Assembly: GCA_027028725.1 (NCBI GenBank)
Contig: JALVIB010000013.1
Location: forward strand, 1-40,722
From: Candidatus Altimarinota bacterium
GTDB taxonomy: Bacteria; Patescibacteriota; Gracilibacteria; UBA4473
Direction of reading: 5' to 3'
DNA length: 40,722 nt
A program made the position numbers and the translations under genes. Positions 18,122-40,674 of this stretch are shown here, piece after piece. Numbering within the stretch: position 1 is the first letter of the stretch; each line of letters opens with the position of its first letter. The notes under the pieces were generated by a model. It ran no database searches, had not been told where the DNA came from, and saw nothing but the letters and a program-made list of their open reading frames with translations.

Positions 18122-19801
18122 TCAATTTAAAACATCTAAATAACACTCCTCACACAAAATTCGTCCGTTATATTTTTCTGGCCAAGAAGTTTGGATTTTT
18201 TTCGCGCATTTTCCGCATTTCGTGTCGCGGAGTTTTCCGTTGAACGGCATCCACGCGAAGTTTTCTTTAATTCGGCGCATATAGTAAGTATTCGGCAACG
18301 GACAACCTAAATCCCGCGAAAATTTAATATCAGCTGGTAAAATTTTGAATGGTCGGTGGTATTCTTCGTCCCAAAAAATTTGCTTTGTCAGCCACGCTTC
18401 TTTTTCCGGTGTTAAATCATCAACCGAATCAGGTATTTCGGAAGTTGGTAAATAATTTTTATTTTTTCGTTCGGAAATCTCCGAAACGCGAAAACCAAGT
18501 TTTTCTTGTGCTTCTCTGGTTAGAGGGAAATGATAACCTGCCCAACTTTCGTCATACGGATTTGGGGCGAAATATCCGGGAAAAAATTTTCCCCAAGTCC
18601 CTTCTTTTTTCATCTGTGCAATGATTTTTTCGCGGGTTTTTTCGTATTCTTCTTTGGTATACTGTTTATTAAAAATGCAGTATTTTTTACCAACTAAACC
18701 ACAACAACCAAAGCAGTTTTCGCATTGGAAACAATACATTGAATAATCGACAAAACGACACTGAACGAGTTGCACTCCAAAACGCGTCATATAACATTTA
18801 TCCTGAATCAACATCCCGCGAAAAACTAGTTCACTTGTTTGTCCATGCATATCTAACAAAGTTTTTCCCGTATAATTTCGTATTAAATTCGCACTTTCTT
18901 CAGTTCCGTTCACAAAATAACAATCGACACAATCGTTACAATTATCAGTATAGTTTCCAGTTGTGTTTTCGCATTTATCTAAATAAAGTGTGCGATGCCA
19001 CGCATTTTTTGTCATCATCTGAGCAAAAAAACTTTTGGCTTTATCGTAAATTTCGCGGGATTTTAGATTCCATTGGGCTTTCTTTTTTTCGTATTCTTCG
19101 CGAGAAAGTTGTTTGTTTCCAAAGCAATATTGTTTGTTCCGTAAATTAAAACAGAACATACAATTTGAGCAATTTCGGCAATCGTAAAGAAAGGCTGAAT
19201 CTTGAACATTTTGACAACTTAACAAGTATTTGGAATCAAAAATTTTTCGCGAATTTACGCAATCCAAAGCTAATTCATGATTAAAACCAAAGACACAAAA
19301 ATCTGAATCATTTGAATTTAAAAGACGATAACAATATTTTAAATCTTCGTCTTCAACTCCAGAATGACACAAATAACAATTTTTAGAATACCACCAGTCA
19401 TCAGTATATTCGCAATTTTCATTTCCCACTCCGGTATTGTGTGGAATAGGACACTTTTGAAAAAGTTCCCAAGCTTGTGAAAAGAAATCCCGCGCCGCGC
19501 CCCGCTCTGCGGTGGAAAAATCATAGTCCGCACTTGGCGGATTATTTTCTTTCATCCAAACATCTTTATGCCAAACCGGATAGGGACATTTTTCCGAAAA
19601 AACGGAAATAATTGGTTTACCGGTTTTATCACATTTGCGATTATGCAAGTTCCAGTGTTGCCAAAACGCTCCCAATTCACGAAATCTCACCCATGGTGCG
19701 GTTGTCGGTAAATCAAAAAAACCGAATTTTTCGCGGAGTTTTATTTCTAATTCCGAAACTTCAAATTCTTCGCCGGAAATTGTGCAGGTTTGTTTGGTCA
19801 T
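18122..19801 (-). CDS. very cysteine-rich repeat protein with a C-terminal zinc-ribbon-like CxxC...CxxC, unknown function
   Basis: 559 aa. Repeated Cys patterns (NCEYTDDWWYSKNCYLCHS, DCRNCSNCMFCFNLRNKQYCF, CFQCENCFGCCGLVGKKYCIFNKQY). Ends CGKCAKK...CEECY. TGA stop. Carries one composite repeat in frame (ERGAARDF). Confidence 0.6.
   Translation of the reverse strand: MTKQTCTISGEEFEVSELEIKLREKFGFFDLPTTAPWVRFRELGAFWQHWNLHNRKCDKTGKPIISVFSEKCPYPVWHKDVWMKENNPPSADYDFSTAERGAARDFFSQAWELFQKCPIPHNTGVGNENCEYTDDWWYSKNCYLCHSGVEDEDLKYCYRLLNSNDSDFCVFGFNHELALDCVNSRKIFDSKYLLSCQNVQDSAFLYDCRNCSNCMFCFNLRNKQYCFGNKQLSREEYEKKKAQWNLKSREIYDKAKSFFAQMMTKNAWHRTLYLDKCENTTGNYTDNCNDCVDCYFVNGTEESANLIRNYTGKTLLDMHGQTSELVFRGMLIQDKCYMTRFGVQLVQCRFVDYSMYCFQCENCFGCCGLVGKKYCIFNKQYTKEEYEKTREKIIAQMKKEGTWGKFFPGYFAPNPYDESWAGYHFPLTREAQEKLGFRVSEISERKNKNYLPTSEIPDSVDDLTPEKEAWLTKQIFWDEEYHRPFKILPADIKFSRDLGCPLPNTYYMRRIKENFAWMPFNGKLRDTKCGKCAKKIQTSWPEKYNGRILCEECYLDVLN
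19485..19521 (+). repeat. composite element copy b (in frame in the Cys-rich gene)
   Basis: AAATCCCGCG-CCGCGCCCCGCTCTGCGGTGG-AAAAAT. Read antisense as STAERGAARDF. Confidence 0.85.
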
Positions 19802-20406: not shown

Positions 20407-23400
20407 TTATTGCACCACAATATCTTTTACCGGAATGAAAAATTCCGCGATTTTTTTGTCTATCCCTTTCTCGTTTTCGATGTTAATTGTAAAAATTAGT
20501 GGTTCTTTTTCATCAGTGGCTTTTTTCGGAAGAATTTTTAAGTTTTTCAAATAATCAGTTGCTTCAAATTTTCCCGAATTATTCAAAATTCCAACAGTCC
20601 GTTTGTTCGCATTGTCTAATAAAACAACTCCATCTGAAAAACTTTGCCAAACGAAATCATCTTGATCATCTGCGTCAACAACCTGAATTTCTGATGAATT
20701 TTTGACAGATTTCGCGGGAATTTCCGAAGTATTAGAGTTGATTTTGACATCATTTTCCCCGCTCGTTTTCAAGGTAATAGTCGCCATTTCCTCCATTTTG
20801 TCATCAGTAATTTTGATAGCAAAAGGTTTTGTCGTAATTCTCGTGTGAGCTTTTTTAGAATTCAAAATCATTGGACGACCAGTCGGCAAAATCGCCGCCA
20901 AAACTTCTTTTGTGTTTTTATCTTTTAATAAAATATTTCCAGATGTTCCTAATTCTTCTAACACAAAATTTCCACCTTTTTCAGAAATGGCAGTTTTTTC
21001 CAAAATATCTTTTCTCCCCTTTCGCTCACGCAAAACTCCAACTCTCAATCCACTAATCCCCTCTTTTATTTTCCCGCGAATTTTTTGTTCGCGCCGTGAA
21101 ACATCAATTAGTTTTAATTTTGGAACTTTAACTTCAATTGGAATAATTTGTGTCGCGATATTTCCGGATTCGTCAGCAATATTTAGCTCTACTTCAAAGT
21201 TCTGTGGAAAATTTTTCGCGGGCAATTTTATTTTTAATAATTGTGTCGGTGATTTTTTGTCTTTATCTGAATCAAGGAAAATGTGTCCGTCTCGCTTCCA
21301 CCAAACCCGCGAAATTTTTTGGTTATCATAACTTCCCGAAGCATCAATTTCAATCGGCGCTGTAATAAATGCTTCAATTTTACTTCCTTGTGAAATAATG
21401 ATTTGCGGCGGTTCGGTATCATCTCCCGGCTGTGGATCATGCAGTAAGTTTTTAGAGAGCACGAAACTTTCACCGTCTTTTTTGAAGGCCTTAAATTGTC
21501 CATAATGATTACCTAGATTTAGTTTTTGAAAGTTATCAATAAAATTTTCGCGGGAATTGAAGCTGTGTAGTTCATAACTTTCTCCACCATAAATGTGGAC
21601 TTTGGTATCGTTGTAAAGATTTAATTCTACTTCATCATTATTACCTAATTCAAAGCGCATATTGGAGAAAAAGTGATCTCCAACTTTCGGCACAAATTTT
21701 TCAATTTTTCCTAAATCCAAATAATTAATTTCTCCGCGAGTTAGACAAATTTCCGCGAAATCTACGGCAGTTTCTTCCCCCGCTCGCAAAATAATGTCGC
21801 GTTCTTCGGCTTGCTGTCCTTCTCGTTTTTTAGTTTTCACTCGGAATTGTGATTCTTTCCCAATTCCCACCAAAATTGTTTCTTCTGGGAAAAACGGCTT
21901 CACTACTTCCGGATCGCGACACTCGCTCGCGGAAAATCTCGCGATTTTTTTCATTTTATTTCCGTATAAAATTGGATGTCCAACAATCTTTTTAATTTGA
22001 GCTACTCCCGGACGAATCTCGTATTTATGACCTTTCGGGCGGATCAAAAATCCAATTCGTTTCCATTCTTTGGAATATTTTTCCACCGCCTTGCGGGGCA
22101 CTGCGCGGGATTTTGGTGTTTTTTCAAAGATTCGGTCCGGTCGCTCTGAAATAATCCACTCAAAGTAAGAAATTTCGCGGGATTTTGGTGGCAAAAATTC
22201 CAAACTAGATCCTATTGCATTAGTTTCTGAATTAAGTTCAATCGCTGGTGCGAAATATTTGGAAAATTCCGCGAAATTTTGGTGTATGACTTCTTTGGAA
22301 GTTTGTGATTCAGTTGGAAATTTATCTTTCAAGCGTTTCATAAAGAGTTGTCCGTCAATTGAGTAAAGTAATTCCGGTGTGCCATCTTCATCTAAATCAG
22401 AAACATTTAAAGTATGGATTTTCCCATTTACCGGAAAATCGGTAATCACTTCGGCTTTATCTTTTTGTGAATCGTAATAATATAGTTTGGCAATTGGTTG
22501 CGGCTCAATATTTTTTGGATCATATTTACTGGTATCAACATTATCCGGTAAGAAATTTGGTACATCATCAGCCGAAGCTAACATATTCTTGTAAAGAGCC
22601 AGATGTTTTTCAAGACGCGATTTAATTTTCTTTTGTTGAAAATCTAGCGGAATATCCGTTGCCGAATCAGCTAATTTTTTCAGTTTTTGTAAAACCGGTC
22701 TTGTGTCGATTTCTCCGGAATTATCTTCCACTTCGTCAAATAAATTTATCGCGACCGTTTCCACTTTCTCATTTTTTATCGACGAAGTTGGTAAATTTCG
22801 CGGGATTATACTTTCCGGATTTGGAATTCCACCTTTTCCCATCGTACTTAAAGTATTTGTGATGGCGTTCATTGTTTGTGCCAAAGCTGTCAAAGAAGCG
22901 TTTACACTTTCAAAAGCCGGCACAAGCGGAACTTTTGGTTTAATATTAATTGTTGGTGCTACCATTTTCGGCATAAGTGGTAGTTGTGCCGAAGGAACAA
23001 AATCCATTGGCAATAAACTTGTTCTATTTGTTAATTGCACAACTCGCGAAGCCACTTTCCATTCCGGAATTGGAATAATTCCCATTGATAACCAACACAG
23101 AATTGTTTTCATAAAAGGCTTAAAGGCAGAAACAATCGCCGTTACCGGTTTCAAAATATTTGGGAAATTTGGCGGTGGCAAAAGCGTTGGTAATTGAGGC
23201 AAATTAATTGTTGGCACTTTGATTTCCGGAACAACTTTTGGTAAAGGCGGCAAAACAACAATGTTTGGAACTTTGATTGTTGGAAATTTAGCGATAAAAT
23301 CAGCATTATAGTTGGCTGAATTTCCCGCGCTGTGCCCCGCTAAGCGGTGGAAATTTCCACCACCTGAAAGTGTTGATAAAGAAGAATCTAAACTAGCGTT

Positions 23401-26400
23401 ATAAGATTTAAGTTTGTTTTCAATGTTTTTTCCAGCGATTAACAGATCTGCTTCGTTGGTAATTCCTTCTAGTGAATCAAAAGTTAAATCTGTCATTTTT
23501 CCAACAGAACCAATTGAGGCAGTAAATCCTTTCAAAGAAGCGTTCAAGCTTTGATCAATTAATTTCGCGGGATTTATCTTGGCAGAAATAGTTGTCGGTA
23601 GTTTTGGTAAACTAACAGGAACTGGCGAAAATGATATTTCGGGAACTGTGACGGATACTCCAATTTTTACATCCGATAAATCAATCATTGTGTTCTGCAT
23701 TTGTGGCATCGGAATAACTGGCAATTTAACAGCGGAAAGCAAGATCTTTAATAACCAAGAAATCATCGTTCCACGATTAACTGAACTCGCTCCCCCACCT
23801 CCACCAGGGACACAACTCACTGTGAAGTCTTTAAATAGATTTGGAATATCATTCCAAGTATCAACGATGCCTTTAACTTTTTTCGCGAATTTTTTCCATT
23901 CTTTAACAGCTTGTTTGTTTTTATTTATCCAGGTTGACCAGTAAACTTCAACTACTTCGTTGATTTTTTCCATTTCCTCAACTGCTCGCTTAATTTTTTT
24001 AGGTAATTCTTTTAGTTTCTTGATCTCTGTCATATATGAATCCAATGCCCTAAGGTTTTCATCAAGAACTGTTTCTATTTTTTCAATCTCATCAATTTGT
24101 TCTTGAATTTTATTTTTCGCGGAATTTTTTAATTCTTGTGGTGTATTTTTTAATCCTATTAATTTTTCGTTAACTAAATTCTTCAATTCTGCCGATCGAG
24201 TCTTAATATTTTGAACCTCGTTTTTAATTGAAAGTTGTAAATCCGGTGGTAATTTACTCAGGTCTGGTAAATTGATTTCAGCTGAAAAATTATTATTAAA
24301 ATTTGTTTGAAAATCAGCAATAGCCCTATCAAAATCCTGAAAATCTGTCAGCTCTAAATCAACTAAACTTTGTGATAAACTCGCCTTGGCATCAGCGGAA
24401 GATTTTTTCCAAAAACTGAAATCTGTTTTTAATTTGTCTAATTTTTCGCGAGAAAAATCTGGATAATTTATCTGTAAATTTTTTCTTTTAACTTCGAAAT
24501 ATGGGGAAGCGGCTAATCTATCTAATGGCTTCATTGATTTATCACCGAATTTTAATTTCGGAAATTTAGGTAAAATTATATCAAACTGCGGGAATTTATA
24601 ATTACTAAATTCGTCCATTTGCGCCTTTGCCCATTCCGTAATAATATCCGGCGCTGCAATATTAAGATTTTGAGAATATCCACCGACTAACGGTGCAAAA
24701 GTTCCATAATTTACATTTCCGTTATCGGCAAAAGAATTTTGTAAAAAAGCATTTCGTGAAGCATTTTCATCAGAATTCGCGGGATTTTCAAAAATACAGT
24801 TATTTGAAGTGTCATTATTATTTCCATTTCCACTAGAAGACGAAGATGATAATGGTGGAACAATCACAAAACACTGTGGTGGGAAAGGGCTTCCGGTAGG
24901 CGACATTGAAGAATCGATAACTGGCCCACCGCAGATACCTATTCCTACTCGTAAAGTAGTTGTCGGCATTATATAAAGTCTAAACAGAGAAGTAGAATTT
25001 GGTCCTACCCCTACAAAAGGTGTAGATGGACCAACCCACAAAATAGGAAATCCTGGGAATTGTGGACCAGGAAAAGCAAACGGCGGAATATAGATGCTTT
25101 GTGGACCGGGAGCCAAGAACGCAATCGAAGGAATTTGTAATCCCGCGAAATTTTGTTTAACCGACATTTCTTGCATTAGTTCTTCAACATCCAGTGTATG
25201 ATAAAAAGGTGGCAAACCATCATCAGAAGAAGTTAAACACTCCAGCATATCACTTGCAGTCGATTCTGCATCAAAATCACTCGGAAAAGTTGTCCCCTCT
25301 GGAAAAGCATCAACGATTTTCTTGAGATGAGTTTTGACTATCGGTGAAGCCGGTGCATCAGGTGTTTTTTTCGCGGGATTTGGTGGATAAAGTTTGCCCG
25401 AACCATACGATAAATATTCGATAAATTTCTTTTTTCCATCAATCACCCACGGAATCAAAATATCATCAATGCCGTCTTTACCGACAAAATCAACCACTTT
25501 GAAACTAATTAACGGAACTTCTACTGTTTTTAATTTCCAAGAAATTCGAACAAGTTGTTGTTTTGGAATATTGCAACCGGAAATCATCATACTTTCCGAT
25601 TTTTCGGATATTTCGGGGTTTCCTTCGCAGTTTGTGAAATCAAAAGAATTGGTATCAACCTGAAATCCCGCGAATTTTGGAACAATTAATTTGAAGTTTT
25701 CCAAATCAATATTCGGTGAGTAAATAGTCACTTTTGCTGTAAATTCCGAATCTTTTTGAACTTTTAAATTATTTAAATTTCGCGGGTTTTCCTGTGTCAT
25801 TTCAAATTTAATGTTGAACGCTTTATTTTCAGTTACTCGTAAAAAATCAGTTTCTCCAATTTTTCGCAAGTTCGGCGTCCAAGCGTAGTCCAGAATATTA
25901 GAAAATCCCGCGAAAAAATTCTGTAAGTTTTTAAATTTATCAGGATTTATGTATTTCAAAGAACGATTTTGTCCATCAGCAGTTGTGTAGTACTCGGAAA
26001 TTTCTTGAAAAGTTGCTCCTGCCGAATCAAGCAATTGTGCTGAATAAAATCCGCCCTCTCGTCCGTAAACGAAATATAAATTATTGGAGTCATCAAGTAG
26101 AACTAAATCATCAAAAGCATCTGAATTAAGTTTGGCTACCGCGATTTTTTCAATTGGATTTAGCAATCCTAAATTAATTTTTTCGCGGGAAAATTTTCCG
26201 TCTTGATTGTGGTGAAAGATCAGTTTTCCCTCGTCATTAATTTGAATGATGTACTCTAAATCACCATTATTTTTATTGTAAGCGACAGTTTGTTTGGCAC
26301 CATCGGCAAACCGCAGAATTTTTCCGATATCACGGAAATTATCTTGATTGTGCGGATCAGCATAGAGCGCGGAAAGCGTGTCTCCGCTACGCACAAAAAT

Positions 26401-29400
26401 TTCGCGGGAATTATCAAAGTTTAAATCTCCTGTCATTACTTCGTCAATAACCCCCTGATTTGTGCGATAAATCGGCTTTCCTAAATCTTTGGTCAGACCA
26501 AGTTCGGATTTTTCGTTTTCGCTAGCCACTGATAAAGTCGGATCACCGAGCAAGATACAATTTTCGGAACAGGAAAATTTTGTCGCTTCTCCAACTGAAT
26601 TTTTCGCAGCAAAAAGTAGTCCTCCTTTCCAAGAAGTTGTCCAACCTAATTTTTCATCAGTTGTCGGAAAATTTGGCGCTTTCAATATTTTATCGGGTGT
26701 TTCAAATTCATTTTTCGCGATAACCGCAATTCCTTTCGGGGAAGTTGTGGTCAGCCCGTTTAAAGATTTTTCTAATTTAATAGACGGATCTAGACTCTGG
26801 AAAAATAACGAATTTCCCGCGAAATTTTTGGCTTGGAATATTTCTGAAACTTTTTTAGAAACCTCGAGTCCTGCTTCTTTTTTTGAAAACAATTTTTTCG
26901 GTGTTTGTAGTTCCTCCAAATTAAATTGAGGATCAGTCATTTTCAAAATAATTTCCCCCAATAATTTTCCTTCTAAATAAACTTCCCAATGATACAAAGA
27001 ATTATCTTTAATTCGTAATTCCAATTTGGAATTTTCGACAAAAATTCCCCCTTGCGGAGCAATTTTAAACAAAGGTTGTTCTTGATAAAAAATTTCGCGG
27101 GATTTTAGGTAAAACTCCTTAATATCTAATTCTTCAACAGGAATAAAATAAATTCCGTCTTCCTCTATTTTTTTTCTTCCTGCCCAAAAATCTACCTTCG
27201 AATCAAAATTGAATTTAGCAGAGACTTTTTTATTTAAAACGACCTCCCATTTACTACCAGAAACAACTTCCGGCTGAAAATCCCGCGCTGTGCCCCGCAA
27301 GGCGGTGGAAATTTTTCCGTCGGCAAAAATATTTCCTAATTTTTTCGCTTGTTTTTTATCAGCTATTTGTGTCGCTACCGCTTGCGTTTCACCATCAAAA
27401 AGAAAGCGATTTCCAATATTTGGCTTAGTTAAATCTCCTCCAGCAAACCCAAGTAATAATGTTAGCAAAGATTTCGGTGATAAATGCTTGAAATCACTTG
27501 TCGTCAAAACTTTTACTGCATCAATCTCGATTGTTCCCGGCAATAAATCGTCATTTTGCGCAACTATGTAAGCTTTTCCGCCATGCTCAACCGGATAAAT
27601 TTTATTAATACCTAAACCATTGGTAATTGTTAAATTTTCAGATTCTAAGGAAATAACTGGTGAAGAATTTGCGGGATTTTGGTTCTGATTCTGGACTAAG
27701 GCATCAACTTTTGCCGGATTATCCAAAATATTTAGATCCTTCAAATCTTGTGCTTTGTCCGCGAAATTTTCCGGTGGATTAACTGCAAACTGCACTTCTC
27801 CATCAAAGTCCGCGAGATTTCCATATTTATCGAGCACGCGAACTTGTAAATCTAGTGGGTTTTCATCGTCAACATTGAGAGTTTTCTTAGAACTTAAAAG
27901 TTGAATTTGATAAGGATCGCCCGCGAAAATTTGCAGGGAAAAATTGTTTTTCACAAAACCTGGTGCAGAAATTTGCACATTCAAATTGCCTGCTTTTTCG
28001 CCCGCGAAAATTTCTAGCTCCGCTTCCCCATTTTCAAAAACTATTTCTGGTAAAGCTGTCGCTTTGGCTTTATCGCTTACCAAAACCTGCGCAACAAAAT
28101 CATTTTTCAAAATTTTGCCGTCTGCCGTCTTGGCTAAAACCTTAATTTTTAACGGTTCTGTATCCCCCGCTCGCAAGTCTTTTTCCGGAATAATTGTTTC
28201 AAAAACTGGATTTTTAGCGAGTAAAATTTCCACCGCCTTGCGGGGCACAGCGCGGGATTTTTTAAGTAGAAGTGGTTTCTCATCTTCCTTTGTCGGAATT
28301 TCTGCAACCAAAGATATGTGTTCCGTAGGAATTTCGCGCTGTGCCCCGCTCTGCGGTGGGGATTTTTTCGTTGGTAAAATTTTGGTGATTTTTTTCAAAA
28401 ATTCTTCTTCCGGTTCATGTGCCTGAATGAATACTTCTCCTGCTTTTTCACCTTTTTCCAAGGTTAAATTTTCTCCAATCTGCCATTTTATTTGCTCTGC
28501 TAATTCTGGTATTTCGTTGCCATATTTATCAGTAATTCCCGTGAAAAAATTTTGCTTAACGCCGTTTATCACAAGTTTGTCTGGCGCGGAAAAAATCTCG
28601 ATTTTAGCTGGTTCAGCTGGCAAAATATCAAAATAAATTTTCGCGGGAGGAAGTAGTTTCTGTTCATCTTGTACAATAATTTCTGCTTCTCCGGCTTTAA
28701 TTCCTGGTAAGAAAACAATTTTAGCTATCCCATCTTTTATTTTGGCGCGAGCACCTGAAGTAAATTCTTCGGAAAAGAAACGCCCTTTTTCTGATGTAAA
28801 TTCTAAAATTTCGCCATCAAAACTGTGATCAATATTTCCTTCGTTATCCAAAATTTTCGCGGAAATTTCCGTTCCCGTTCCGTCTCCGGCGGTGATTTTT
28901 TCTTTATCGCTGGAAGCACTTATTCTCTTAGTTGAGATTTTTATTTGAACTTCGTTTGATTCAACTGAATTCCCGCGAAATTTAAACTTCACGACTCCCC
29001 CATTTGGTCCGCGTTTTGGCAAAAGGAAAAATTTCGCTTGTCCCGCTTTAACCAAAACTTTTTTCGCGGGCGTTATGGTAAAGAAATTTTCTAAATCTGA
29101 ACTATTACTAATCAATTCTACTTCTGTCGAATAATCGTTTTTCAAAATTTTGCCGTCAGCATCTTTGAGCGTAACTTTTATTTCCTGCGGAAAAGTCTCG
29201 TTGTTAGAAATTTTAATTGCACTTGGTTCAGCTGCAATTTCTGAAATAACAATTTCGTCTGCAGTTTTCACTGGACTTAAATCAAAAGAAGACAAATTTT
29301 TCGCGGGATTTTTATCTGTATTCTCTGAACTATCTTCTTTTTCTAAATCAACATTTGGAATTAGTTTTGTTATTTTACTCAAAACATTCGGCAATTCTTG

Positions 29401-31941
29401 TAGCCAAGGAACTAAACATTTTGAAGGCCAAGAAAAAATATTTCCCGTACAAGAATTTTCACTGGCTGATTTTTCAAAAAGCTTCTCGAATTCCTGTTGT
29501 AGTTTCAAATTTTCGCGGGAATTTATTTTTTTGTATTCTGTTGCAACTTCATCATTGGCTGAAGTTATATCGGCCTGATTTTTTAAGTCAACAAAACTGG
29601 TACTTGGTTTTTCATCACCACGCTCAAAAGCAATTTTTAGTCCGTTATTATTTTCAAAATCCGCTAATTCCCCGCGAATTTCTATTAACTCATAACCATC
29701 AAAATCTGATTGTTTTAAGGCATTTCGCGCTTTACCGGGCGCCGACATCGCCGCCGTCAACATTTCAATATTTTTTGTTTCCAAATCCTTTCCCAGCCAC
29801 TTAATCGCTTCAATTAGTTCTTTTTGTTTCCCCGAATTCATCCAGATAGAATCCGCGAAATATGATTCTTGGATTTTTCCAGCATTTCCCGCTGTTGAAT
29901 TAATTTCGTCTATTGTAGACAAAAGTTGTTGTTCTAAGTCCGCCTTAGTTAAAATTTCAAAATTTTCATCAGTTTCCTCACGCTTGTTAATTAAATCAAA
30001 AGCACTCGGAAAATAAATTCGGTAAAAATTATAATCGTAATCATAAAAAGAAATTCCGTGATGCGGATCAATTGGTAAAGCATTTGTTATTTTATTTTTC
30101 AGTTGGGCCTTAATTGTGTCTATTGTTGGTTCGTTGTGAACCATTAGAGAGGAAATTTCGATTTTCTTTTTGTTCGCAGCAGCAGTTCTAACTGCCGTAT
30201 CTTGTAATTCTAAAATAATAGGAGCGCAAGCACTAGCTCCATCATAGCGAGAATCAGAAATTTCGCGGGATCCTGTCATGCTAAAAATTGGAGAATTTAC
30301 TGATTCATACCAATGATTATAAGGTAGAGACTGAGTTGGATCATAAACTGCCTTATCCCAATAATAGTGAACTTTTACTTCTTCATTACTTCTCATATGA
30401 GATATATATAACGGTAAACGACATTTATGATAATCAATATCACTACCACTAATTTTTCCACAACAACGATCGTCTGGATAAATATCATCACTAGTAACAA
30501 CTTTGCTAAATTTATGCGGATTAAAAACCCGCGAAATTTCTACTTTTTGAGCAATTGGATTAGAGTCTGAACGAAGTGTTCCCCGATAAAGAGAACAATT
30601 CTCTGCAGGATACTTTATATCAGCTGTTTCATACTCTCCTGTTCTCCAATTCCATTTTTTAAAGTATTTGTTTTCTACTGGCTTACTAAAAGGTATCCCT
30701 AACCATTCAGCAGGAAAATGTTTTAAACAAGTACTTTCATCATTATTAACACATCCAACATCTTCTATTATAAGATTTACTTTGGCCGCAATATTATTTT
30801 CATCAACCTTATTAATTAAAATATTCTCTACTTCATCAGTAGCTTCTTTCAAAATATCTGATGCCCACTGGTCTTTTTTGGCAATTAGTGAAATGGTCGT
30901 ATCAATATCCGGCGCTTCCCAGCGACCAGCGACTTCTACTTGCTCATTAATTTGCGATAATAAATTTTTATTCGCGGTCAGATACCGCATTGACATTGTT
31001 TCAATTGGATTTTTGGTAAAAATATCAGGAATTTGCGATAAATCCATTGACTGATCTTGTCCTTGCATTGAGTTCGGCAAAAGTTCGTTTGGCACGCCTT
31101 GTCCCATTTCTTTATCTAGCAATTCCTGCAACCAATGCTTATTAAAGCGGTGATAAACAAAATCACCCAAATGATTAATCCAGTTCTCATAAAATTGTTT
31201 TTGTTTCTCACTTATCCCCCGTCGTTGACGGAAAAAATCCGCGAAAAAAACTTTTTTGGAATAATTTATCTTTTTCTGGTGAACTTGGTGATTACGCGTA
31301 AAATATTTTTTTAATTCTGCAATTTGCAATTCTAAATCATCAGCATCAGACCGAATTAATCCGTGCCAAATTTCCGGCTCATTATCTCCCCCAACCCATT
31401 TAAAGCGTTTTCTATCAAAATCCCATTGATAAGAAGTATCTTCAAAATCAACATACGGAAAAATCGCGGGATTTAGACCGCCGTTTTTGTCAACAATTGG
31501 CAGAGGAACCTCTCCGATTAAAATTGTTCCAATTAATTGTGACTTATGATCATTTTCGTATCCGGAAAAATAAAGTTGCGCCAAACCTTCCTGAATTTCT
31601 TTGGGAGAAGCGTCTTCCGGTACATTGATAACAATTGCCCGCGAATTTAGTTCATTCTGAACATCCTGTGCATATCGTTCGATGTCGCCTTTTAAATCTG
31701 TGTCTAGAAGTTCTTCCTGAACCAGAATTGCCACAATTTTTTCGCGGGAAATTGGCGGAAGTTCTTTTTCCGGCTTTTCTGAAATATCTTTCTGTTTATC
31801 CTTTTTAATGAAGTTTATATTCCCAAAATCAAAATCAAAAAGTGCTTTGGCTTCCGCGATTGGTGCCCCAATAGAGAAAAAAACTGACAAAAGCGCCACA
31901 AAACTAGCAAATTTTTGCCATAACTTTTCTTTAAAAAACAT
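20407..31941 (-). CDS. giant (3,844 aa) membrane-anchored surface protein with Ig-like (Big_1-like) and FG-GAP/VCBS-like repeats, Pro/Gly-rich hydrophobic segments and a coiled coil
   Basis: Single uninterrupted ORF. N-terminal signal/anchor (FASFVALLSVFFSIGAPIAEAKA). Invasin-like Ig repeats at about 27760-29250 (VTLKDADGKILKND..., AKILDNEGNIDHSFDG..., RVLDKYGNLADFDG...). FG-GAP-like DxDxDG-type segments (GDLNFDNSREIF, NSDAFDDLVLLDDSNNLYF, SDLDEDGTPELLYS). Contains 30 short motifs and 5 composite repeats, all in frame. Confidence 0.8.
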   Translation of the reverse strand: MFFKEKLWQKFASFVALLSVFFSIGAPIAEAKALFDFDFGNINFIKKDKQKDISEKPEKELPPISREKIVAILVQEELLDTDLKGDIERYAQDVQNELNSRAIVINVPEDASPKEIQEGLAQLYFSGYENDHKSQLIGTILIGEVPLPIVDKNGGLNPAIFPYVDFEDTSYQWDFDRKRFKWVGGDNEPEIWHGLIRSDADDLELQIAELKKYFTRNHQVHQKKINYSKKVFFADFFRQRRGISEKQKQFYENWINHLGDFVYHRFNKHWLQELLDKEMGQGVPNELLPNSMQGQDQSMDLSQIPDIFTKNPIETMSMRYLTANKNLLSQINEQVEVAGRWEAPDIDTTISLIAKKDQWASDILKEATDEVENILINKVDENNIAAKVNLIIEDVGCVNNDESTCLKHFPAEWLGIPFSKPVENKYFKKWNWRTGEYETADIKYPAENCSLYRGTLRSDSNPIAQKVEISRVFNPHKFSKVVTSDDIYPDDRCCGKISGSDIDYHKCRLPLYISHMRSNEEVKVHYYWDKAVYDPTQSLPYNHWYESVNSPIFSMTGSREISDSRYDGASACAPIILELQDTAVRTAAANKKKIEISSLMVHNEPTIDTIKAQLKNKITNALPIDPHHGISFYDYDYNFYRIYFPSAFDLINKREETDENFEILTKADLEQQLLSTIDEINSTAGNAGKIQESYFADSIWMNSGKQKELIEAIKWLGKDLETKNIEMLTAAMSAPGKARNALKQSDFDGYELIEIRGELADFENNNGLKIAFERGDEKPSTSFVDLKNQADITSANDEVATEYKKINSRENLKLQQEFEKLFEKSASENSCTGNIFSWPSKCLVPWLQELPNVLSKITKLIPNVDLEKEDSSENTDKNPAKNLSSFDLSPVKTADEIVISEIAAEPSAIKISNNETFPQEIKVTLKDADGKILKNDYSTEVELISNSSDLENFFTITPAKKVLVKAGQAKFFLLPKRGPNGGVVKFKFRGNSVESNEVQIKISTKRISASSDKEKITAGDGTGTEISAKILDNEGNIDHSFDGEILEFTSEKGRFFSEEFTSGARAKIKDGIAKIVFLPGIKAGEAEIIVQDEQKLLPPAKIYFDILPAEPAKIEIFSAPDKLVINGVKQNFFTGITDKYGNEIPELAEQIKWQIGENLTLEKGEKAGEVFIQAHEPEEEFLKKITKILPTKKSPPQSGAQREIPTEHISLVAEIPTKEDEKPLLLKKSRAVPRKAVEILLAKNPVFETIIPEKDLRAGDTEPLKIKVLAKTADGKILKNDFVAQVLVSDKAKATALPEIVFENGEAELEIFAGEKAGNLNVQISAPGFVKNNFSLQIFAGDPYQIQLLSSKKTLNVDDENPLDLQVRVLDKYGNLADFDGEVQFAVNPPENFADKAQDLKDLNILDNPAKVDALVQNQNQNPANSSPVISLESENLTITNGLGINKIYPVEHGGKAYIVAQNDDLLPGTIEIDAVKVLTTSDFKHLSPKSLLTLLLGFAGGDLTKPNIGNRFLFDGETQAVATQIADKKQAKKLGNIFADGKISTALRGTARDFQPEVVSGSKWEVVLNKKVSAKFNFDSKVDFWAGRKKIEEDGIYFIPVEELDIKEFYLKSREIFYQEQPLFKIAPQGGIFVENSKLELRIKDNSLYHWEVYLEGKLLGEIILKMTDPQFNLEELQTPKKLFSKKEAGLEVSKKVSEIFQAKNFAGNSLFFQSLDPSIKLEKSLNGLTTTSPKGIAVIAKNEFETPDKILKAPNFPTTDEKLGWTTSWKGGLLFAAKNSVGEATKFSCSENCILLGDPTLSVASENEKSELGLTKDLGKPIYRTNQGVIDEVMTGDLNFDNSREIFVRSGDTLSALYADPHNQDNFRDIGKILRFADGAKQTVAYNKNNGDLEYIIQINDEGKLIFHHNQDGKFSREKINLGLLNPIEKIAVAKLNSDAFDDLVLLDDSNNLYFVYGREGGFYSAQLLDSAGATFQEISEYYTTADGQNRSLKYINPDKFKNLQNFFAGFSNILDYAWTPNLRKIGETDFLRVTENKAFNIKFEMTQENPRNLNNLKVQKDSEFTAKVTIYSPNIDLENFKLIVPKFAGFQVDTNSFDFTNCEGNPEISEKSESMMISGCNIPKQQLVRISWKLKTVEVPLISFKVVDFVGKDGIDDILIPWVIDGKKKFIEYLSYGSGKLYPPNPAKKTPDAPASPIVKTHLKKIVDAFPEGTTFPSDFDAESTASDMLECLTSSDDGLPPFYHTLDVEELMQEMSVKQNFAGLQIPSIAFLAPGPQSIYIPPFAFPGPQFPGFPILWVGPSTPFVGVGPNSTSLFRLYIMPTTTLRVGIGICGGPVIDSSMSPTGSPFPPQCFVIVPPLSSSSSSGNGNNNDTSNNCIFENPANSDENASRNAFLQNSFADNGNVNYGTFAPLVGGYSQNLNIAAPDIITEWAKAQMDEFSNYKFPQFDIILPKFPKLKFGDKSMKPLDRLAASPYFEVKRKNLQINYPDFSREKLDKLKTDFSFWKKSSADAKASLSQSLVDLELTDFQDFDRAIADFQTNFNNNFSAEINLPDLSKLPPDLQLSIKNEVQNIKTRSAELKNLVNEKLIGLKNTPQELKNSAKNKIQEQIDEIEKIETVLDENLRALDSYMTEIKKLKELPKKIKRAVEEMEKINEVVEVYWSTWINKNKQAVKEWKKFAKKVKGIVDTWNDIPNLFKDFTVSCVPGGGGGASSVNRGTMISWLLKILLSAVKLPVIPMPQMQNTMIDLSDVKIGVSVTVPEISFSPVPVSLPKLPTTISAKINPAKLIDQSLNASLKGFTASIGSVGKMTDLTFDSLEGITNEADLLIAGKNIENKLKSYNASLDSSLSTLSGGGNFHRLAGHSAGNSANYNADFIAKFPTIKVPNIVVLPPLPKVVPEIKVPTINLPQLPTLLPPPNFPNILKPVTAIVSAFKPFMKTILCWLSMGIIPIPEWKVASRVVQLTNRTSLLPMDFVPSAQLPLMPKMVAPTINIKPKVPLVPAFESVNASLTALAQTMNAITNTLSTMGKGGIPNPESIIPRNLPTSSIKNEKVETVAINLFDEVEDNSGEIDTRPVLQKLKKLADSATDIPLDFQQKKIKSRLEKHLALYKNMLASADDVPNFLPDNVDTSKYDPKNIEPQPIAKLYYYDSQKDKAEVITDFPVNGKIHTLNVSDLDEDGTPELLYSIDGQLFMKRLKDKFPTESQTSKEVIHQNFAEFSKYFAPAIELNSETNAIGSSLEFLPPKSREISYFEWIISERPDRIFEKTPKSRAVPRKAVEKYSKEWKRIGFLIRPKGHKYEIRPGVAQIKKIVGHPILYGNKMKKIARFSASECRDPEVVKPFFPEETILVGIGKESQFRVKTKKREGQQAEERDIILRAGEETAVDFAEICLTRGEINYLDLGKIEKFVPKVGDHFFSNMRFELGNNDEVELNLYNDTKVHIYGGESYELHSFNSRENFIDNFQKLNLGNHYGQFKAFKKDGESFVLSKNLLHDPQPGDDTEPPQIIISQGSKIEAFITAPIEIDASGSYDNQKISRVWWKRDGHIFLDSDKDKKSPTQLLKIKLPAKNFPQNFEVELNIADESGNIATQIIPIEVKVPKLKLIDVSRREQKIRGKIKEGISGLRVGVLRERKGRKDILEKTAISEKGGNFVLEELGTSGNILLKDKNTKEVLAAILPTGRPMILNSKKAHTRITTKPFAIKITDDKMEEMATITLKTSGENDVKINSNTSEIPAKSVKNSSEIQVVDADDQDDFVWQSFSDGVVLLDNANKRTVGILNNSGKFEATDYLKNLKILPKKATDEKEPLIFTINIENEKGIDKKIAEFFIPVKDIVVQ
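22078..22114 (-). repeat. composite element copy c (in frame in the giant gene)
   Basis: Reverse complement is AAAATCCCGCG-CAGTGCCCCGCAAGGCGGTGG-AAAA. Read as KSRAVPRKAVEK. Confidence 0.9.
23319..23356 (+). repeat. composite element copy d (in frame in the giant gene)
   Basis: AATTTCCCGCG-CTGTGCCCCGCTAAGCGGTGG-AAATTT. Read antisense as NFHRLAGHSAGNS. Confidence 0.9.
27277..27316 (+). repeat. composite element copy e (in frame in the giant gene)
   Basis: AAAATCCCGCG-CTGTGCCCCGCAAGGCGGTGG-AAATTTTT. Read antisense as ISTALRGTARDF. Confidence 0.9.
28223..28263 (-). repeat. composite element copy f (in frame in the giant gene)
   Basis: Reverse complement is AAAAAATCCCGCG-CTGTGCCCCGCAAGGCGGTGG-AAATTTT. 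Read as KKSRAVPRKAVEI. Confidence 0.9.
28330..28368 (+). repeat. composite element copy g: the same cassette inside an opposite-orientation host motif (in frame in the giant gene)
   Basis: AATTTCGCG-CTGTGCCCCGCTCTGCGGTGG-GGATTTTTT. Read antisense as SPPQSGAQREI. Confidence 0.85.
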
Positions 31942-32027: not shown

Positions 32028-35000
32028 TTATTTTGGAGGACTCCAACTCATTAAAACTTTTTCAATAACTTCAGTATTTTCAAAGTATTTTTCGCGTGTT
32101 TCTGGACTATCTAATAATTTTTTTGCCTTTTCCCAAACACCACTTTCTTCCAACTTCTTTTTTCGCTCTTTATATTGAATTCCATATTCCAAAACACCCA
32201 TAAAATCTAAAACTTCTCCAAATCCATCATCACCACCAGCAACTTGAAAAACCTGTTTCATAAAACTATTAATTTGTTCTTTGCTTCTTTGAGCCGAAGC
32301 TGAATAACCTGTATCTTCCTTTCTCCAATCTTCTGCATTAAAGACTATTGAACCACGCTCCTGTCCAAGGTTAATATTACCTTGAAGTGTTTGAGTTACA
32401 GTTAAAGCCGCATTTAATCTGTCTCCAACCTCAATTAATGCTCTTTTCCTTTCTTTTTGCCAACCAGGTAATTCACCCCATTTTTCATCTCCTTCTTTAA
32501 TATAATCCCGCATCATTTGCATATATGTCGGAAATCCTGATAAATAACGACGCCAAAGGTCGTTTGACAATTTGTTTTCACCACCAGAAGATTGTGACAT
32601 ATTGTTTATAAGATGGACCTGCTTCCAGTCCGCGAAAAAACTTTCTGCATCATCATGATCTCCCTCTTTATCTGAAAAACGATCCATTCGCGAAACACGA
32701 TCACGAGCCGGTGGGGAAGCATGTACAATATGATAAAAGAATTTTTTTGTTTGTTCTTTAATATTAGAATCATTAAGAATATCAAAAGACCCACCTCCAT
32801 TACCAAGAAAGTCTCCCCAAGCCTTATAGTCTTCATATGTCCACCCTCTTTTTTCTGCTCCTGGAGTGTCTTCTGGAACAATTCTGCCATTTAATTTATA
32901 AGATTCCTTATCTGTTAAAAAATCAACATGTGGAAATCTTGCTAAAAATTTATCATTAATTCGCATAAAGGCATCTCGTGAAATTAAACTACGATTTGTT
33001 TTAGGATTTATAGTAGCAACCCCCATTACTAAAAAATACCATCTTTGATCAGGTTGTCCGTTCATTTTTCCTTTCTCAAAAGACTCATGAATAAAACATT
33101 CATATTTCGCGGGATCTACATCTGTACTATCTCCTCTTGCCCATTTTTTTAACATTGTTGATAAAATCCTACTCCTAGCTACAGGAGAGTCCTCATATCT
33201 AGCAAAATCAGCTTTAAAACTATCGATTGCTGAATCAAGTTTACCTTTAAGATTAGTATCCCAATCTCGGAATGTTTCTTTTGACCAAATAAATTCACAA
33301 GCATTACGAACTTTGTCCAAGATTTCTAAACGAGAAAGATTTAAGTCTTCAGGAATACGGAAAGTAACTGCATTTCCGGACAACCTCATCAAAGTTCTCC
33401 ATAGTCCAGGATCATCCCATTGCAAAACCCCCTTATCTAACATCAATCTAATCAAAGCTTTAGCTTCATCTTGGTCATTGGTACGATATAAGGCATCTTG
33501 CAAATCCCATCCCGGCACTTCTCCATACTGAGTTTCAAATTCTTTAACCCGGTTTTCTTCTGCTTCTTCTGCCTTTTGCTTAAAATCTTTTCCCCAAGCT
33601 GATTTCTCACCAAAAAAACTCATTCCAATATTTGCCACAGCTCGCTCTGAATCACGCTGCCATCTTCTTTCATGCACTTCAATTGCTTGTTTTACAATGG
33701 CATATAAATCATACAATGAGAATCTTTGATAATTCCTCTGAGGACCACTGTTTTTGGCATTATCATCATATTCTGTCACCCATTTTTTAATTTTTTGCGC
33801 ACTATCATTGGCGCTCTTTGAATAATCTCGCAAAGAATTAAAATCTGCCATTTCAGCAATAGCTTCTGCTCTGTCCTGCGGAGATGCATCATAACGATTA
33901 ATCCAGTCTTTTAGGAACCCTGACTTAAAAAATTTATCTGATTTTTCTTTAAATTCATTCAGTCTTGCTCTATGTTGACTCAAAATATCTTCTAAATACT
34001 CCTTATCCAAACCATATTTATTAAAGAAGTCTTGATCATCCATTTTGTTTAAATCTCGACGGATTCGACTTTCAACATCATTAATTGCTTCCTGATATTC
34101 CGCGAAATCTTTTTTAAACCCTTTAACTACCTCATTATAATTTTTGGTAAATTCTTCTTTATCAGGCGTATCATCATCAAAAAATTGCAACTCGGTCAGA
34201 AGCTCCAAAGCTCTATTGGAATCTTCCAAATATTTATTTAAAGACTCACTTTCTTTAGCAAATTTCCCGTCTCGAAAATTCAAAGCTGTTTCAAGTTTGA
34301 TGAAATTATCAGCGAAAATTTCCCAGAAAGTCTCTTTTCCCGTAAATTTATAATCAATTTTTTTCGCGTGTTTTTGCAAATTATCAAAAGTCTTCTGGAA
34401 ACTATCCAACATTTTCATTGGAACTTCCATCAATAAATCGGTAAATTCAGCCGGATTAACTCCTTCCGGCAAAACTTCGTTAATGACTGTACCTAAATCT
34501 AAAAATTTATTTCTTAATTTCTCCTTTTGTTCCGGCCATTTCTCAAAAAGTTTATCTAACTCATTTTTAGCTTCTGCTTGACGCAAACTCGCCGCAATCG
34601 GATCATCTTTCATCTTAGAAATCCCGCGAAATTTTTCAGCAATTTGGGCAATATCATCCCGTAATCCATTAGTTATTTCTGCAATTTCATTATTAACACT
34701 CTGTGTTTGTAAAGCTATTTCATTCAAAAACTCGCGCCCCGGAGCCCAAATTAATTTAGGTTTACCATTTTTATCTTTTCCCCAATATCGCCCGCCTCTT
34801 TGATAAGCTTGTTTGCGGTACTCAAAGGACTCTTCTAATTTATCTGCTTCATCTAAATAATGTTGTTTTTTCGCGGGATTTGTTTCTTCTTCAGCTTTAC
34901 GACGCAACCGTTCTACATAAGCTTCATTAACTTGGTGTGCATCTTCTATTTCTTGTGATGTAATTAATTTATTTTGCTCATAAGCCACATGATCTTCGTG

Positions 35001-37418: not shown

Positions 37419-37555
37419 TTGTAATCCGAAGATTATACCATAAAATCCCGCGAAAAAATAGACACATGAAGCTATTTTCGCTTGCAATAAGACGACATAT
37501 GTTAATTTTATAAAATTTCGCGGAATTTTTTATTTTTTTCGTGCATTTGTTGTTG

Positions 37556-39951: not shown

Positions 39952-40674
39952 ATGAAAGATTTCACCAGCAAAATTCTCGATATCAAAAAAATTGCGACAG
40001 ACACCAAGCGTTTTATTTTTTCTAAACCAACTAATTACGATTTTCAAGCGGGACAATTTTTGATTATAAAATTCGCGAAAGATTTGATACGCGCTTATTC
40101 CATCGCTTCTCCGCCGAGTGAAGAAAATTTGGAACTAGTTATTCGCATTATTCCCAATGGTCGCGGGACAAGTATTCTGGATAAAGCCAAAATTAGTGAT
40201 GAGTTTACTATTTCTCAATCGATGGGACATTTTGTTTTATCAGAAAATCAAGAAGCGGAATTATTTTTTCTGGCTACAGGAACAGGAATTGCCCCATTTA
40301 AATCTATGATTTGCACAGAAGCGCAGAAAAAAATCCCGCGAAAAATGCATTTGTTTTACGGCGGACGCCAAGTGGAAGATTTACCTTATTTAGACGAAAT
40401 TTCCTCTTGGACAGAAAATTTGGAAGTTAAGATTGGTCTTTCTCGTGATCCTGATGCTAAAAAAAGAGAATTTTCAAACTTAAAAGCTGAAATTGATAAC
40501 TGCCGAATTACCAAATTCATTGAAAACGAAAATTTCCACCGCTTAGCGGGGCACGGCGCGGGAAATTCCGAGTTTTACATCTGCGGAAATAAAGGCATGG
40601 TCGAAGGAACTCGCGATTTATTATTAGAAAAAGGAATAGAAAAATCACGGATATTTTTTGAGAAGTTTAATTAA
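39952..40674 (+). CDS. ferredoxin-NADP reductase-family FAD/NAD(P)-binding oxidoreductase
   Basis: 240 aa. FAD motif RAYSIAS, NAD(P) motif LATGTGIAPFKSM, C-terminal YICG block. A 12-aa repeat-encoded insertion (FHRLAGHGAGNS) sits just before YICG. Confidence 0.75.
   Translation: MKDFTSKILDIKKIATDTKRFIFSKPTNYDFQAGQFLIIKFAKDLIRAYSIASPPSEENLELVIRIIPNGRGTSILDKAKISDEFTISQSMGHFVLSENQEAELFFLATGTGIAPFKSMICTEAQKKIPRKMHLFYGGRQVEDLPYLDEISSWTENLEVKIGLSRDPDAKKREFSNLKAEIDNCRITKFIENENFHRLAGHGAGNSEFYICGNKGMVEGTRDLLLEKGIEKSRIFFEKFN
40529..40567 (-). repeat. composite element copy j (in frame in the FNR-family gene)
   Basis: Reverse complement is AATTTCCCGCG-CCGTGCCCCGCTAAGCGGTGG-AAATTTT. Read antisense as NFHRLAGHGAGNS. 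Confidence 0.9.

Follow-up and report, generated by a model that had tools for sequence, protein, structure and literature searches.

A 21-nucleotide, apparently mobile DNA unit lies within copies of the hyper-abundant word of an uncultured Peribacteria bacterium

A host word split by a 21-nt cassette

We first studied a stretch of 40,722 nt from an uncultured Peribacteria bacterium (contig JALVIB010000013.1 of assembly GCA_027028725.1, positions 1 to 40,722), hereafter called the window. It contains a 3,844-aa gene (20407..31941, minus strand). The plus strand at 28331-28366 reads ATTTCGCG-CTGTGCCCCGCTCTGCGGTGG-GGATTTT, and deletion of 28339-28359 leaves ATTTCGCGGGATTTT, which is the exact reverse complement of the short word AAAATCCCGCGAAAT. 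The features at this site are as follows.

28331..28338, minus strand: 3' half of the split host word (CGCGAAAT on the minus strand); joining it to 28360-28366 gives AAAATCCCGCGAAAT.
28339..28359, plus strand: cassette K (CTGTGCCCCGCTCTGCGGTGG), with the host word reversed relative to K; it is antisense to the 3,844-aa gene and encodes PPQSGAQ. The ortholog in the congener G001 has the empty word variant AAAAAATCTCGCGAAAAT at this spot.
28360..28366, minus strand: 5' half of the split host word (AAAATCC on the minus strand).

The initial annotation had described this site as a reversed host motif interrupted just after CGCG by the cassette in its usual orientation, and we confirmed this description. 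Both sequences are far above chance in the window. The cassette has 8 matches at up to 3 mismatches, while none was found in 100 shuffles, and 10 matches with a looser pattern. AAATCCCGCG occurs 58 times in the window, against 0.15 expected.

We then examined the other nine copies in the window. They fall into register A, in which the junctions read AAATCCCGCG-K-AAATTT, and register B, in which they read AAATCCCG-K-CGAAAT, while the copy at 28339 belongs to register C, AAATTTCGCG-K-GGATTT. In the list below, G002 is a same-genus genome.

4988..5008, plus strand: K, register A, intergenic, left half-word at 4978-4987.
19495..19515, plus strand: K (CCGCG head, TCT loop), register A, left half-word at 19485-19494, antisense in ORF 18122..19801 (minus strand). 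G001 appears to have a decayed K at the matching spot (L113), as judged from similar flanking sequence rather than alignment; G002 is empty with the word there.
22083..22103, minus strand: K (CAGTG head), register A, left half-word at 22104-22113, sense to the 3,844-aa gene. G002 has KSRE / AAAATCCCGCGAAAAA with no gap.
23330..23350, plus strand: K (TAA loop), register A, in the word variant AATTTCCCGCG, antisense to the 3,844-aa gene, encoding HRLAGHS. G002 has NFAG / AAAATTTCGCGGGAAAT at the site.
27288..27308, plus strand: K, register A, left half-word at 27278-27287, antisense to the 3,844-aa gene, encoding TALRGTA. G001 and G002 have an exact 7-aa gap, and G002 reads AAAATTTCGCGGGATTT.
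28230..28250, minus strand: K, register A, left half-word at 28251-28260, sense to the 3,844-aa gene, encoding AVPRKAV. G001 and G002 both have an exact 7-aa gap, and G002 reads AAAATCCCGCGAAATTTT there.
37360..37380, plus strand: K (CCGTG head, TAA loop) in a decayed register-A word (ACCAGCG-K-AAATC), antisense in ORF 32028..37487 (minus strand). G002 has an intact word at the orthologous spot.
38569..38589, plus strand: K (CTGCG head), register B (AAAATCCCG-CTGCG...GGTGG-CGAAAT), sense in ORF 37827..39860, encoding AAPRKAV.
40536..40556, minus strand: K (CCGTG head, TAA loop), register A, in the word variant AATTTCCCGCG, antisense in ORF 39952..40674.

The initial annotation had stated that nine copies follow CCCGCG. 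We found that seven of the nine do so (4988, 19495, 22083, 23330, 27288, 28230 and 40536), while the copy at 37360 follows a decayed CCAGCG and the copy at 38569 lies in a different register.

K occupies three of four possible registers genome-wide

We next asked whether the configuration at 28339 was a one-off. The whole genome (G000) holds 121 copies of K: 35 in register A, 44 in register B, 32 in register C and 10 in decayed contexts. The configuration at 28339 is thus a regular class and not a mutation product, and its junctions are consistent over the 32 reversed-host copies. The fourth possible register, after TTCG, has none. At least 110 of the 121 copies lie in a word (within 1 mismatch). 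A split-word scan showed a peak only at a gap of 21 nt, and only in G000, and no longer K-bearing element was found.

K can be written as C(T/C)G(T/C)G-CCCCGC-NNN-GCGGTGG, and it has the same ends in three different flanking contexts. The tetranucleotide to its left is CGCG in 67 and CCCG in 37 of the 121 copies, and the rest are one-step variants. One rule fits these data: K sits immediately 3' of C(C/G)CG on its own strand, in a fixed orientation and with no target duplication or scar, that is, after CCCG or CGCG on the forward strand of the word AAATCCCGCGAAATTT and after CGCG on its reverse strand. Only 33% of C(C/G)CG strand-sites lie in words, yet at least 91% of K copies do (p about 1e-40). 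The target must be larger than this tetranucleotide. The earlier proposal that K is placed just after CGCG, independent of host polarity, therefore needs two amendments. The largest class (44 copies) sits after CCCG, in the middle of CGCG, and placement is not fully independent of polarity, because of the four possible CG positions only the three preceded by C(C/G) are used.

The hairpin of K is real but modest. It has a 6-bp stem with one bulged T, and its folding energies of -4 to -9 kcal/mol are not better than those of composition-matched shuffles (z -1.2 to +0.1). Stem positions are nearly invariant, while the head (positions 2 and 4) and the loop vary. Stem pair 6-21 shows C-G changed to T-A in 4 unique variants, but covariation is thin. 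Deamination of 5-methylcytosine was considered as the source of the C/T variation in the head, but no C5 methyltransferase (PF00145) was found in G000, G001 or G002.

K is tolerated inside genes

K is 7 codons long and stop-free in all six frames, and 100 of the 121 copies (83%) lie inside ORFs of at least 100 aa. Because of these properties, it persists inside genes as a 7-residue loop. In an AlphaFold model of glucose-6-phosphate isomerase (PGI), which carries three copies, the inserts are low-confidence loops on an otherwise confident predicted fold. We also found that the loop triplet varies with reading frame; for example, TCT or TCC replaces AAG where AAG would encode Pro-Pro-Pro-Cys. 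A peptide-tolerance model explains these changes and the near-absence of LCPARRW. However, it does not explain why register B is 75% sense, while A is 79% and C 87% antisense.

We considered whether K is kept at each place because it is functional, for example as an RNA or DNA structural signal or a protein-binding site, with its spread driven by selection. The nearly invariant stem would agree with this, as would the 2-3.8 times higher frequency of K in coding than in non-coding words and the identity of two shared copies in relatives about 8% diverged. However, K occurs in all six frames, in unrelated proteins and in both orientations to transcription, the copies in G001 are decaying, and many copies are younger than the 10% divergence described below, so that conservation is expected from age alone. 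Moreover, function would not explain how the same 21 nt arrive at a site. We regard this explanation as improbable.

K entered words that already existed

To investigate whether the word or the composite came first, we compared G000 with its relatives. G002 has 1,012 copies of the word 12-mer and no K, G001 has about 15 mostly decayed K, and thirty-eight further relatives have neither. Among GTDB species representatives, K was found only in this Peribacteria genus. Of 82 in-silico emptied sites that align across the junction to G002, 65 align without a gap and 54 have the word at that exact spot. These results support the nested reading of the initial annotation, in which the short word is the pre-existing target of the 21-nt unit.

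We then compared G000 with a relative about 90% identical, although this sample is small (about 21 kb, 10 informative sites) and partly ascertained through K itself. The relative shares K at 4 sites (C61, C57 and two in the S41 peptidase). It lacks K, by exactly 21 nt and with intact words, at 5 sites that are filled in G000 (C94, three in PGI and one in S41), and it has K at one site that is empty in both G000 and G002. In a 14-sequence alignment, none of the 13 other PGI homologs has any of the three inserts. These results indicate that insertions happened both before and after the split of the two lineages.

The reverse scenario, in which the composite is ancestral and the short words arose by deletion of the 21 nt, is contradicted by these data. 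A hairpin flanked by short repeats can be deleted by replication slippage, and excision by a peel-and-paste enzyme would also be scarless, so some empty sites could be secondary. However, words outnumber composites by about 20 to 1, the outgroups are empty at polymorphic sites, and the aligned PGI, S41 peptidase and MurF-type homologs from other lineages lack the 7 residues. We therefore consider this scenario very unlikely.

Although G000 is a 94-contig metagenome-assembled genome, an assembly or binning artefact can hardly account for K, as K-in-word copies occur in the independent assemblies JGI Ga0256832, ENA ERZ27262687 and the GTDB genome CAZYIR01, and they keep long ORFs open. By contrast, viral hits and four of the metagenome hits are chance matches in 59-71% GC DNA with no word; one of them (L129) reads ...IIVPRKAVAELAKLL, which may be a beta-clamp motif.

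Possible modes of spread

Based on the above results, we propose with reasonable though not full confidence that K behaves as a very small non-autonomous mobile element whose only target is the genus-specific hyper-abundant word. Consistent with the insertion of a discrete unit, the same subvariants occur across registers: CTGTG-AAG is found in 22 copies of A, 12 of B and 5 of C, and CCGCG-TCT in 2 copies of A and 6 of C.

We also considered whether K might spread without a dedicated enzyme, from filled to empty words, by ectopic template switching or microhomology-mediated gene conversion, with the 7-10-nt half-words acting as homology arms and the three registers representing three historical founder events. 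About 2,600 near-identical words per Mb supply microhomology everywhere. Many indels between G000 and its close relative end at a word, which suggests that words are breakpoints for illegitimate recombination, and register B is dominated by one subvariant, CTGCG-AAG, with 24 copies. However, the founders would still need three independent insertions of one unit with identical ends, one of them inverted, and the absence of the fourth register would have to be coincidence. Besides the sharing of subvariants across registers, flanks beyond the core keep their local, orthologously inherited variants (AAAT versus AAAA tails), and arms of 7-10 nt are probably far below what RecA-type exchange uses. 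This explanation thus remains possible but unlikely.

We infer that insertion is carried out in trans by an enzyme that cuts and joins single-stranded or hairpin DNA at the word core, perhaps in the manner of HUH/Y1 transposases of the IS200/IS605-RAYT type. A profile search identified two RAYT-like genes in G000 matching PF01797 (34.1 and 26.4 bits, cut-off 23), and none in G001 or G002. Three other hairpin repeat families also occur only in G000. However, no enzyme is tied to K. The C87 RAYT-like gene is flanked by, and contains, GTAG-tagged palindromes, the C24 gene contains GTAG-type palindromes, and neither has K nearby. The 114 GTAG-REPs of the genome are a separate set that sits in TTTT-..-TTTC non-coding contexts and not in words. 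Moreover, G001 has K remnants but no detected Y1 gene, although that genome is 92% complete. A single-strand insertion model also predicts one orientation of K relative to transcription or replication, whereas the registers differ in their orientation to genes, and GC-skew analysis could not separate replication from gene orientation in the 94-contig assembly. The link to RAYT is therefore only co-occurrence in G000, and our assignment to this enzyme class is tentative. Other genes specific to G000 include an IS256-type transposase fragment and a DpnII-type restriction-modification system, but nothing ties them to K.

A more far-reaching and rather doubtful possibility is that K is still mobile, at the lower size limit for mobile DNA, and is inserted by a word-specific single-strand DNA enzyme that cuts after C(C/G)CG. 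The registers would then mark the places where the genome-saturating word is actually cleaved and rejoined, and the word would be a recombination or cleavage site as well as a passive uptake or recognition tag. K would also act as a natural in-frame insertional mutagen that has added 7-residue loops to about 100 proteins within the last ~10% of sequence divergence. Independently of this possibility, this 1-Mb CPR genome has recently accepted 7-residue insertions in about 100 proteins, presence or absence of K gives a fine-scale strain marker, and K may also bear on what the word itself does.

Relation to known small repeats

The closest known case is SDR5, one of the very small mobile repeated elements (small dispersed repeats, 21-27 nt) of Nostocaceae, which is inserted inside the hyper-abundant octamer HIP1 (Elhai et al. 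2008, Genome Res 18:1484; PMC4390886; PMC5861425) and has stayed mechanistically unexplained since 2008. Like K, SDR5 appears to be a dispersed unit of about 21 nt with a small hairpin, placed at a fixed position in a genome-saturating word without duplication, confined to a narrow clade, different in presence between relatives, and without a known enzyme. K appears to represent a second, independent case, in a different phylum (CPR Peribacteria). Its host word is 16-18 nt and asymmetric, so that polarity can be read and a target rule with three registers, one inverted, and one forbidden position is exposed, which the palindromic HIP1 cannot show. In addition, 83% of K copies are inside genes, and HIP1 is methylated by dedicated methyltransferases, while no C5 methyltransferase was found in the three genomes searched here.

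REP / REPIN elements with RAYT (Y1, IS200-like) transposases are also short GC-rich imperfect palindromes in many copies, and REP families inserted within another repeated palindrome (T. roseum GTAG-23, H. neapolitanus CGTC-1) or lying wholly within ORFs have been described (Di Nocera et al. 2013, PMC3733652). In K, however, the head is C(T/C)G(T/C)G and the tail is TGG, with no GTAG or CGTC tag; it is a mostly intragenic singlet of 21 nt that does not flank the RAYT genes and is word-targeted, while the true GTAG-REPs of this genome behave classically. Rickettsia palindromic elements are likewise inserted in frame into functional protein genes and add a peptide segment, but they are about 100-150 bp, are not tied to a host word and belong to the CGTC-tagged class (PMC3733652).

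Elements of the IS200/IS605 family, such as IS608 (3' of TTAC) and ISDra2 (3' of TTGAT), typically insert immediately 3' of a specific short sequence, in one orientation and with no target duplication, as K does. They probably differ in having two different subterminal hairpins, a length of several hundred nt or more, and TnpA encoded by the element or its parent, whereas K is a single 21-nt hairpin with no parent element found. In such insertions the target stays intact on the left, so that tandem re-insertion is possible, and K-K doublets were identified in G001.

A 21-nt cassette interrupts a reversed host word

We first examined the arrangement at 28331-28366 on the + strand, which lies on contig C13 of a genome of 1,041,106 nt in 94 contigs with 38% GC (hereafter G000). 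Public records of its congener name that genome an uncultured Candidatus Peribacteria bacterium, a member of the candidate phyla radiation (CPR). The + strand at this position reads ATTTCGCG-CTGTGCCCCGCTCTGCGGTGG-GGATTTT, and removal of 28339-28359 leaves ATTTCGCGGGATTTT, the reverse complement of AAAATCCCGCGAAAT, which confirms the initial observation. The short word is extremely over-represented, as AAATCCCGCG occurs 58 times in the window against 0.15 expected, and TCCCGCGAAA occurs 1,925 times in the genome. Similarly, the cassette (K) has 8-10 copies in the window against 0 expected. The initial annotation had placed nine copies after CCCGCG. We found that seven of the nine other window copies indeed follow CCCGCG, while one follows a decayed CCAGCG and one (38569) is in a different register.

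K occupies three registers of the word

We then studied the arrangement of K at the genome-wide scale. A separate family of perfect palindromes was set aside, leaving 121 K copies, all of which are in word or decayed-word contexts, in three registers.

Arrangement of K relative to the host word in G000
Register A: AAATCCCGCG-K-AAATTT; 35 copies
Register B: AAATCCCG-K-CGAAAT; 44 copies
Register C: AAATTTCGCG-K-GGATTT (host word reversed; the 28339 type); 32 copies
Decayed: 10 copies
Register D: AAATTTCG-K-CGGGATTT; 0 copies

On the strand of K itself, the four bases to its left are CGCG in 67 copies and CCCG in 37, and the rest are single-step variants. The rule that K lies 3' of C(C/G)CG therefore accounts for the three registers and for the missing fourth, whose left context would be TTCG. 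It is fairly likely that this is a mechanistic rule rather than a historical accident. However, the tetranucleotide alone is not enough, given that only 33% of such sites lie in words, yet at least 91% of K copies do. A scan for split words with any spacer from 1 to 70 nt showed a peak only at 21 nt, and only in this genome. Moreover, K always has the same ends, to within the 1-2 nt that are ambiguous because the flanks repeat the terminal base. The main alternative is microhomology-driven copying between words without a dedicated enzyme. We consider this unlikely, since it still needs three independent founding insertions with identical ends and does not predict the missing register.

A second in-word cassette of 24 nt (8 codons), GCCCTTCAAC-nnn-GTTCAGGGCAA, was also identified at the following positions, none of which is in the window.
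G000 C87:15549-15572, one copy of the 24-nt cassette
G000 C6, C17, C30, C37 and C60, about 8 other places

This cassette is inserted after AAAATCCC of the word. In glucose-6-phosphate isomerase (PGI), a relative of G000 about 90% identical to it has the intact word AAAATCCCGCGAAATTTT at that site. Interestingly, one copy is in the TTCG register that K never uses.

K was inserted into pre-existing words

To investigate whether K or the word came first, we compared G000 with 40 relatives. Only the two other members of the genus have the word, with 1,012 copies of the 12-mer in one (G002) and 281 in the other (G001). G002 has no K even at 3 mismatches, while G001 has about 15 K copies, mostly decayed. 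About half of the K loci in G001 are head-to-tail K-K doublets after AAAATTTCGCG (loci L106, L107, L004 and L112, on G001 contigs C178, C111, C142 and C37), and most copies carry stem-breaking mutations, which looks like an older, decaying K population. Among 185,579 species-representative genomes, in a scan that may leave out records of the window's own genome, the exact 23-mer occurs only in G001. Viral hits and hits in high-GC metagenome contigs are chance matches.

Next, the whole of G002 was retrieved, K was removed in silico from the 100 genic copies, and the emptied peptides were aligned to G002. Of these, 82 alignments span the junction, 65 have no gap at the junction, and 54 have the word at that very spot in G002. 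In the giant gene of the window, the copies at 28230 and 27288 correspond to exact 7-residue gaps in both congeners, and G002 reads AAAATCCCGCGAAATTTT and AAAATTTCGCGGGATTT there. At 28339, G001 has the empty word variant AAAAAATCTCGCGAAAAT, while G002 has no word. These results support the interpretation in the initial annotation that the 21-nt unit is nested in the short word as its target, and the three registers and the tetranucleotide rule sharpen it.

K has been gained recently in two close lineages

We further examined whether K has moved recently. A pattern scan of metagenome contigs identified four contigs of a population 86-92% identical in nucleotide sequence to G000, and two more contigs came from protein look-ups. 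Across these contigs, K is shared at four sites, namely C61, C57 and two in an S41 peptidase. K is present only in G000 at five sites, namely C94, three in PGI and one in the S41 peptidase. Each of these is an exact 21-nt gap in the relative, whose word is intact at four of the sites and decayed at the fifth. Conversely, K is present only in the relative at one site where both G000 and G002 are empty. None of the other aligned homologs has the inserted residues, namely 13 for PGI, 5 more distant ones for the S41 peptidase, and 6 for a MurF-type ligase. The copy at window position 19495 appears to be shared with G001, judging from similar flanking sequence. Insertion has therefore gone on both before and after a split of about 10% divergence, in both lineages, and leaves no scar, although the close-relative sample is about 21 kb and partly ascertained through K. 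Taken together, we are highly confident that K is a discrete unit that was inserted recently into pre-existing words.

The same comparisons gave further indications of how words behave. When loci L119, L121 and L127 were compared with G000 contigs C61, C57 and C87, roughly 9 of 14 non-K indels of 6 nt or more between G000 and its ~90% relative had a word at, or forming, one boundary. This count, which was not set against word density, suggests that words are breakpoints for illegitimate recombination. In two of the three PGI composites (G000 C87:15247-16578, against L127), the CGCG next to K has mutated (CGCA, CACG), while the intact words of the relative keep CGCG, which hints that a split word is no longer maintained. 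In addition, at an orthologous Ile-Ser-Arg-Glu site (G000 C94:~10577 against G002 and locus L123), the word is in opposite orientations in two congeners (ATT TCC CGC GAA versus ATT TCG CGG GAA). Both encode the same residues, so the word can flip polarity by synonymous changes.

K is tolerated within genes

Gene calls rest on our own ORF heuristic (at least 90 aa, covering 84% of the genome). Of 121 copies, 100 lie in ORFs of at least 100 aa, and none interrupts a frame. The consensus K has no stop codon in any of the six frames. The TAA-loop variant is the exception, and it is seen only in frames where it is open. K is relatively more frequent in coding words than in non-coding words. For exact 11-mer words, 59 of 796 coding words are filled against 15 of 724 non-coding words (odds ratio 3.8, p = 1e-6), and with one mismatch allowed the odds ratio is 2.1. 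The encoded peptides are AVPRKAV or AAPRKAV, CAPQGGG, HRLAGHS, TALRGTA and PPQSGAQ, while LCPARRW is almost absent. In the frame where the usual AAG loop would give Pro-Pro-Pro-Cys, all eight register-C copies carry TCT, TCC or CCC loops instead, indicating selection on the peptide. In an AlphaFold model of the isomerase, the three inserts are low-confidence loops at helix ends, and the rest of the fold is mostly confident.

Remarkably, the orientation of K relative to the gene depends on register. Register B is sense in 30 copies and antisense in 10 (75% sense), A is sense in 5 and antisense in 19 (79% antisense), and C is sense in 4 and antisense in 26 (87% antisense). In the window, the copies at 22083, 28230 and 38569 are sense, and those at 19495, 23330, 27288, 28339, 37360 and 40536 are antisense. 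Fill rates per word frame differ up to 5-fold between registers that encode the same peptide. Neither a single-strand model nor peptide tolerance explains these differences in orientation.

K forms a modest hairpin

The stem of K (positions 6-11 with 15-18 and 20-21) is nearly invariant, while positions 2 and 4 (C/T) and the loop vary. Pair 6-21 shows C-G changed to T-A in four unique variants, and the covariation score exceeds all shuffles, but there is little variation to work with. Folding energies are -4 to -9 kcal/mol. Register B is the best because the flanking CG...CG extends the stem to 8 bp, but none is better than composition-matched shuffles. Calling K a hairpin is justified, whereas calling it a strongly selected structure is not.

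Candidate mobilising activities

K is a discrete unit with fixed ends, it is placed 3' of a tetranucleotide in one orientation, it makes no duplication, and its target stays intact to the left, which allows tandem re-insertion as seen in G001. Together, these four features would be the signature of insertion by HUH/Y1 single-strand transposases of the IS200/IS605-RAYT type. G000 has two RAYT-like genes that pass the Pfam Y1_Tnp cut-off, while none was detected in G001 and G002.
G000 C87:7199-7762 (locus L104, outside the window), RAYT-like Y1 transposase gene, flanked by GTAG-type palindromes and carrying one in frame (GCGCGACGGCGCCGTCGCGC, read as ...SATAPSR...)
G000 C24:1747-2451, RAYT-like Y1 transposase gene, carrying three in-frame REP-like hairpins (ETPRWGVS, EVPRWGVS, ETPHRGVS)

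G000 also has 114 GTAG-tagged REP hairpins of several families, 16 copies of a perfect palindrome, CCCCGC-AAG-GCGGGG(G), and the about 9 copies of the 24-nt cassette, and G002 has none of the first two. The palindrome (on C6, C18, C23, C27, C30, C32, C39, C41, C59, C67, C71, C78 and C85, not in the window) differs by one base from the K hairpin and is embedded in a longer conserved element (...AATAATTCC-n-TTCC[hairpin]GATTGAGGGGGAT...). It may be the source of the K hairpin, or a terminator-like repeat. A hairpin-mobilising activity thus seems to have been present in this lineage.

However, the link between these genes and K is still circumstantial. The palindromes associated with both RAYT-like genes are of the GTAG type, and K has no GTAG head. 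The GTAG-REPs sit in TTTT-GTAG...-TTTC non-coding contexts and never in words, although one lies inside ORF 10577..12460. Window examples are as follows.
11585 (+), GTAG-tagged REP hairpin
31188, 32745, 32793 and 34874 (minus-strand offsets), GTAG-tagged REP hairpins

The mobilising enzyme is unknown, and an HUH/RAYT-type enzyme is proposed only tentatively.

Comparison with known small repeats

The closest published case is SDR5, one of the 21-27-nt 'very small mobile repeated elements' of Nostocaceae, which is inserted between the third and fourth bases of the hyper-abundant octamer HIP1 (Elhai et al. 2008, as quoted in PMC4390886 and PMC5861425). K in its word is the same kind of thing, known but rare, in an unrelated phylum. 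REPs nested in other repeated palindromes and REPs within ORFs are also on record (PMC3733652), but K lacks the defining REP features, as it has no GTAG or CGTC tag, does not flank RAYT genes and is not extragenic. K matches Rickettsia palindromic elements only in being in frame. Relative to SDR5, three features are new here: an asymmetric host word that reveals polarity and a forbidden register, predominance inside genes, and direct evidence of gain in both of two close lineages.
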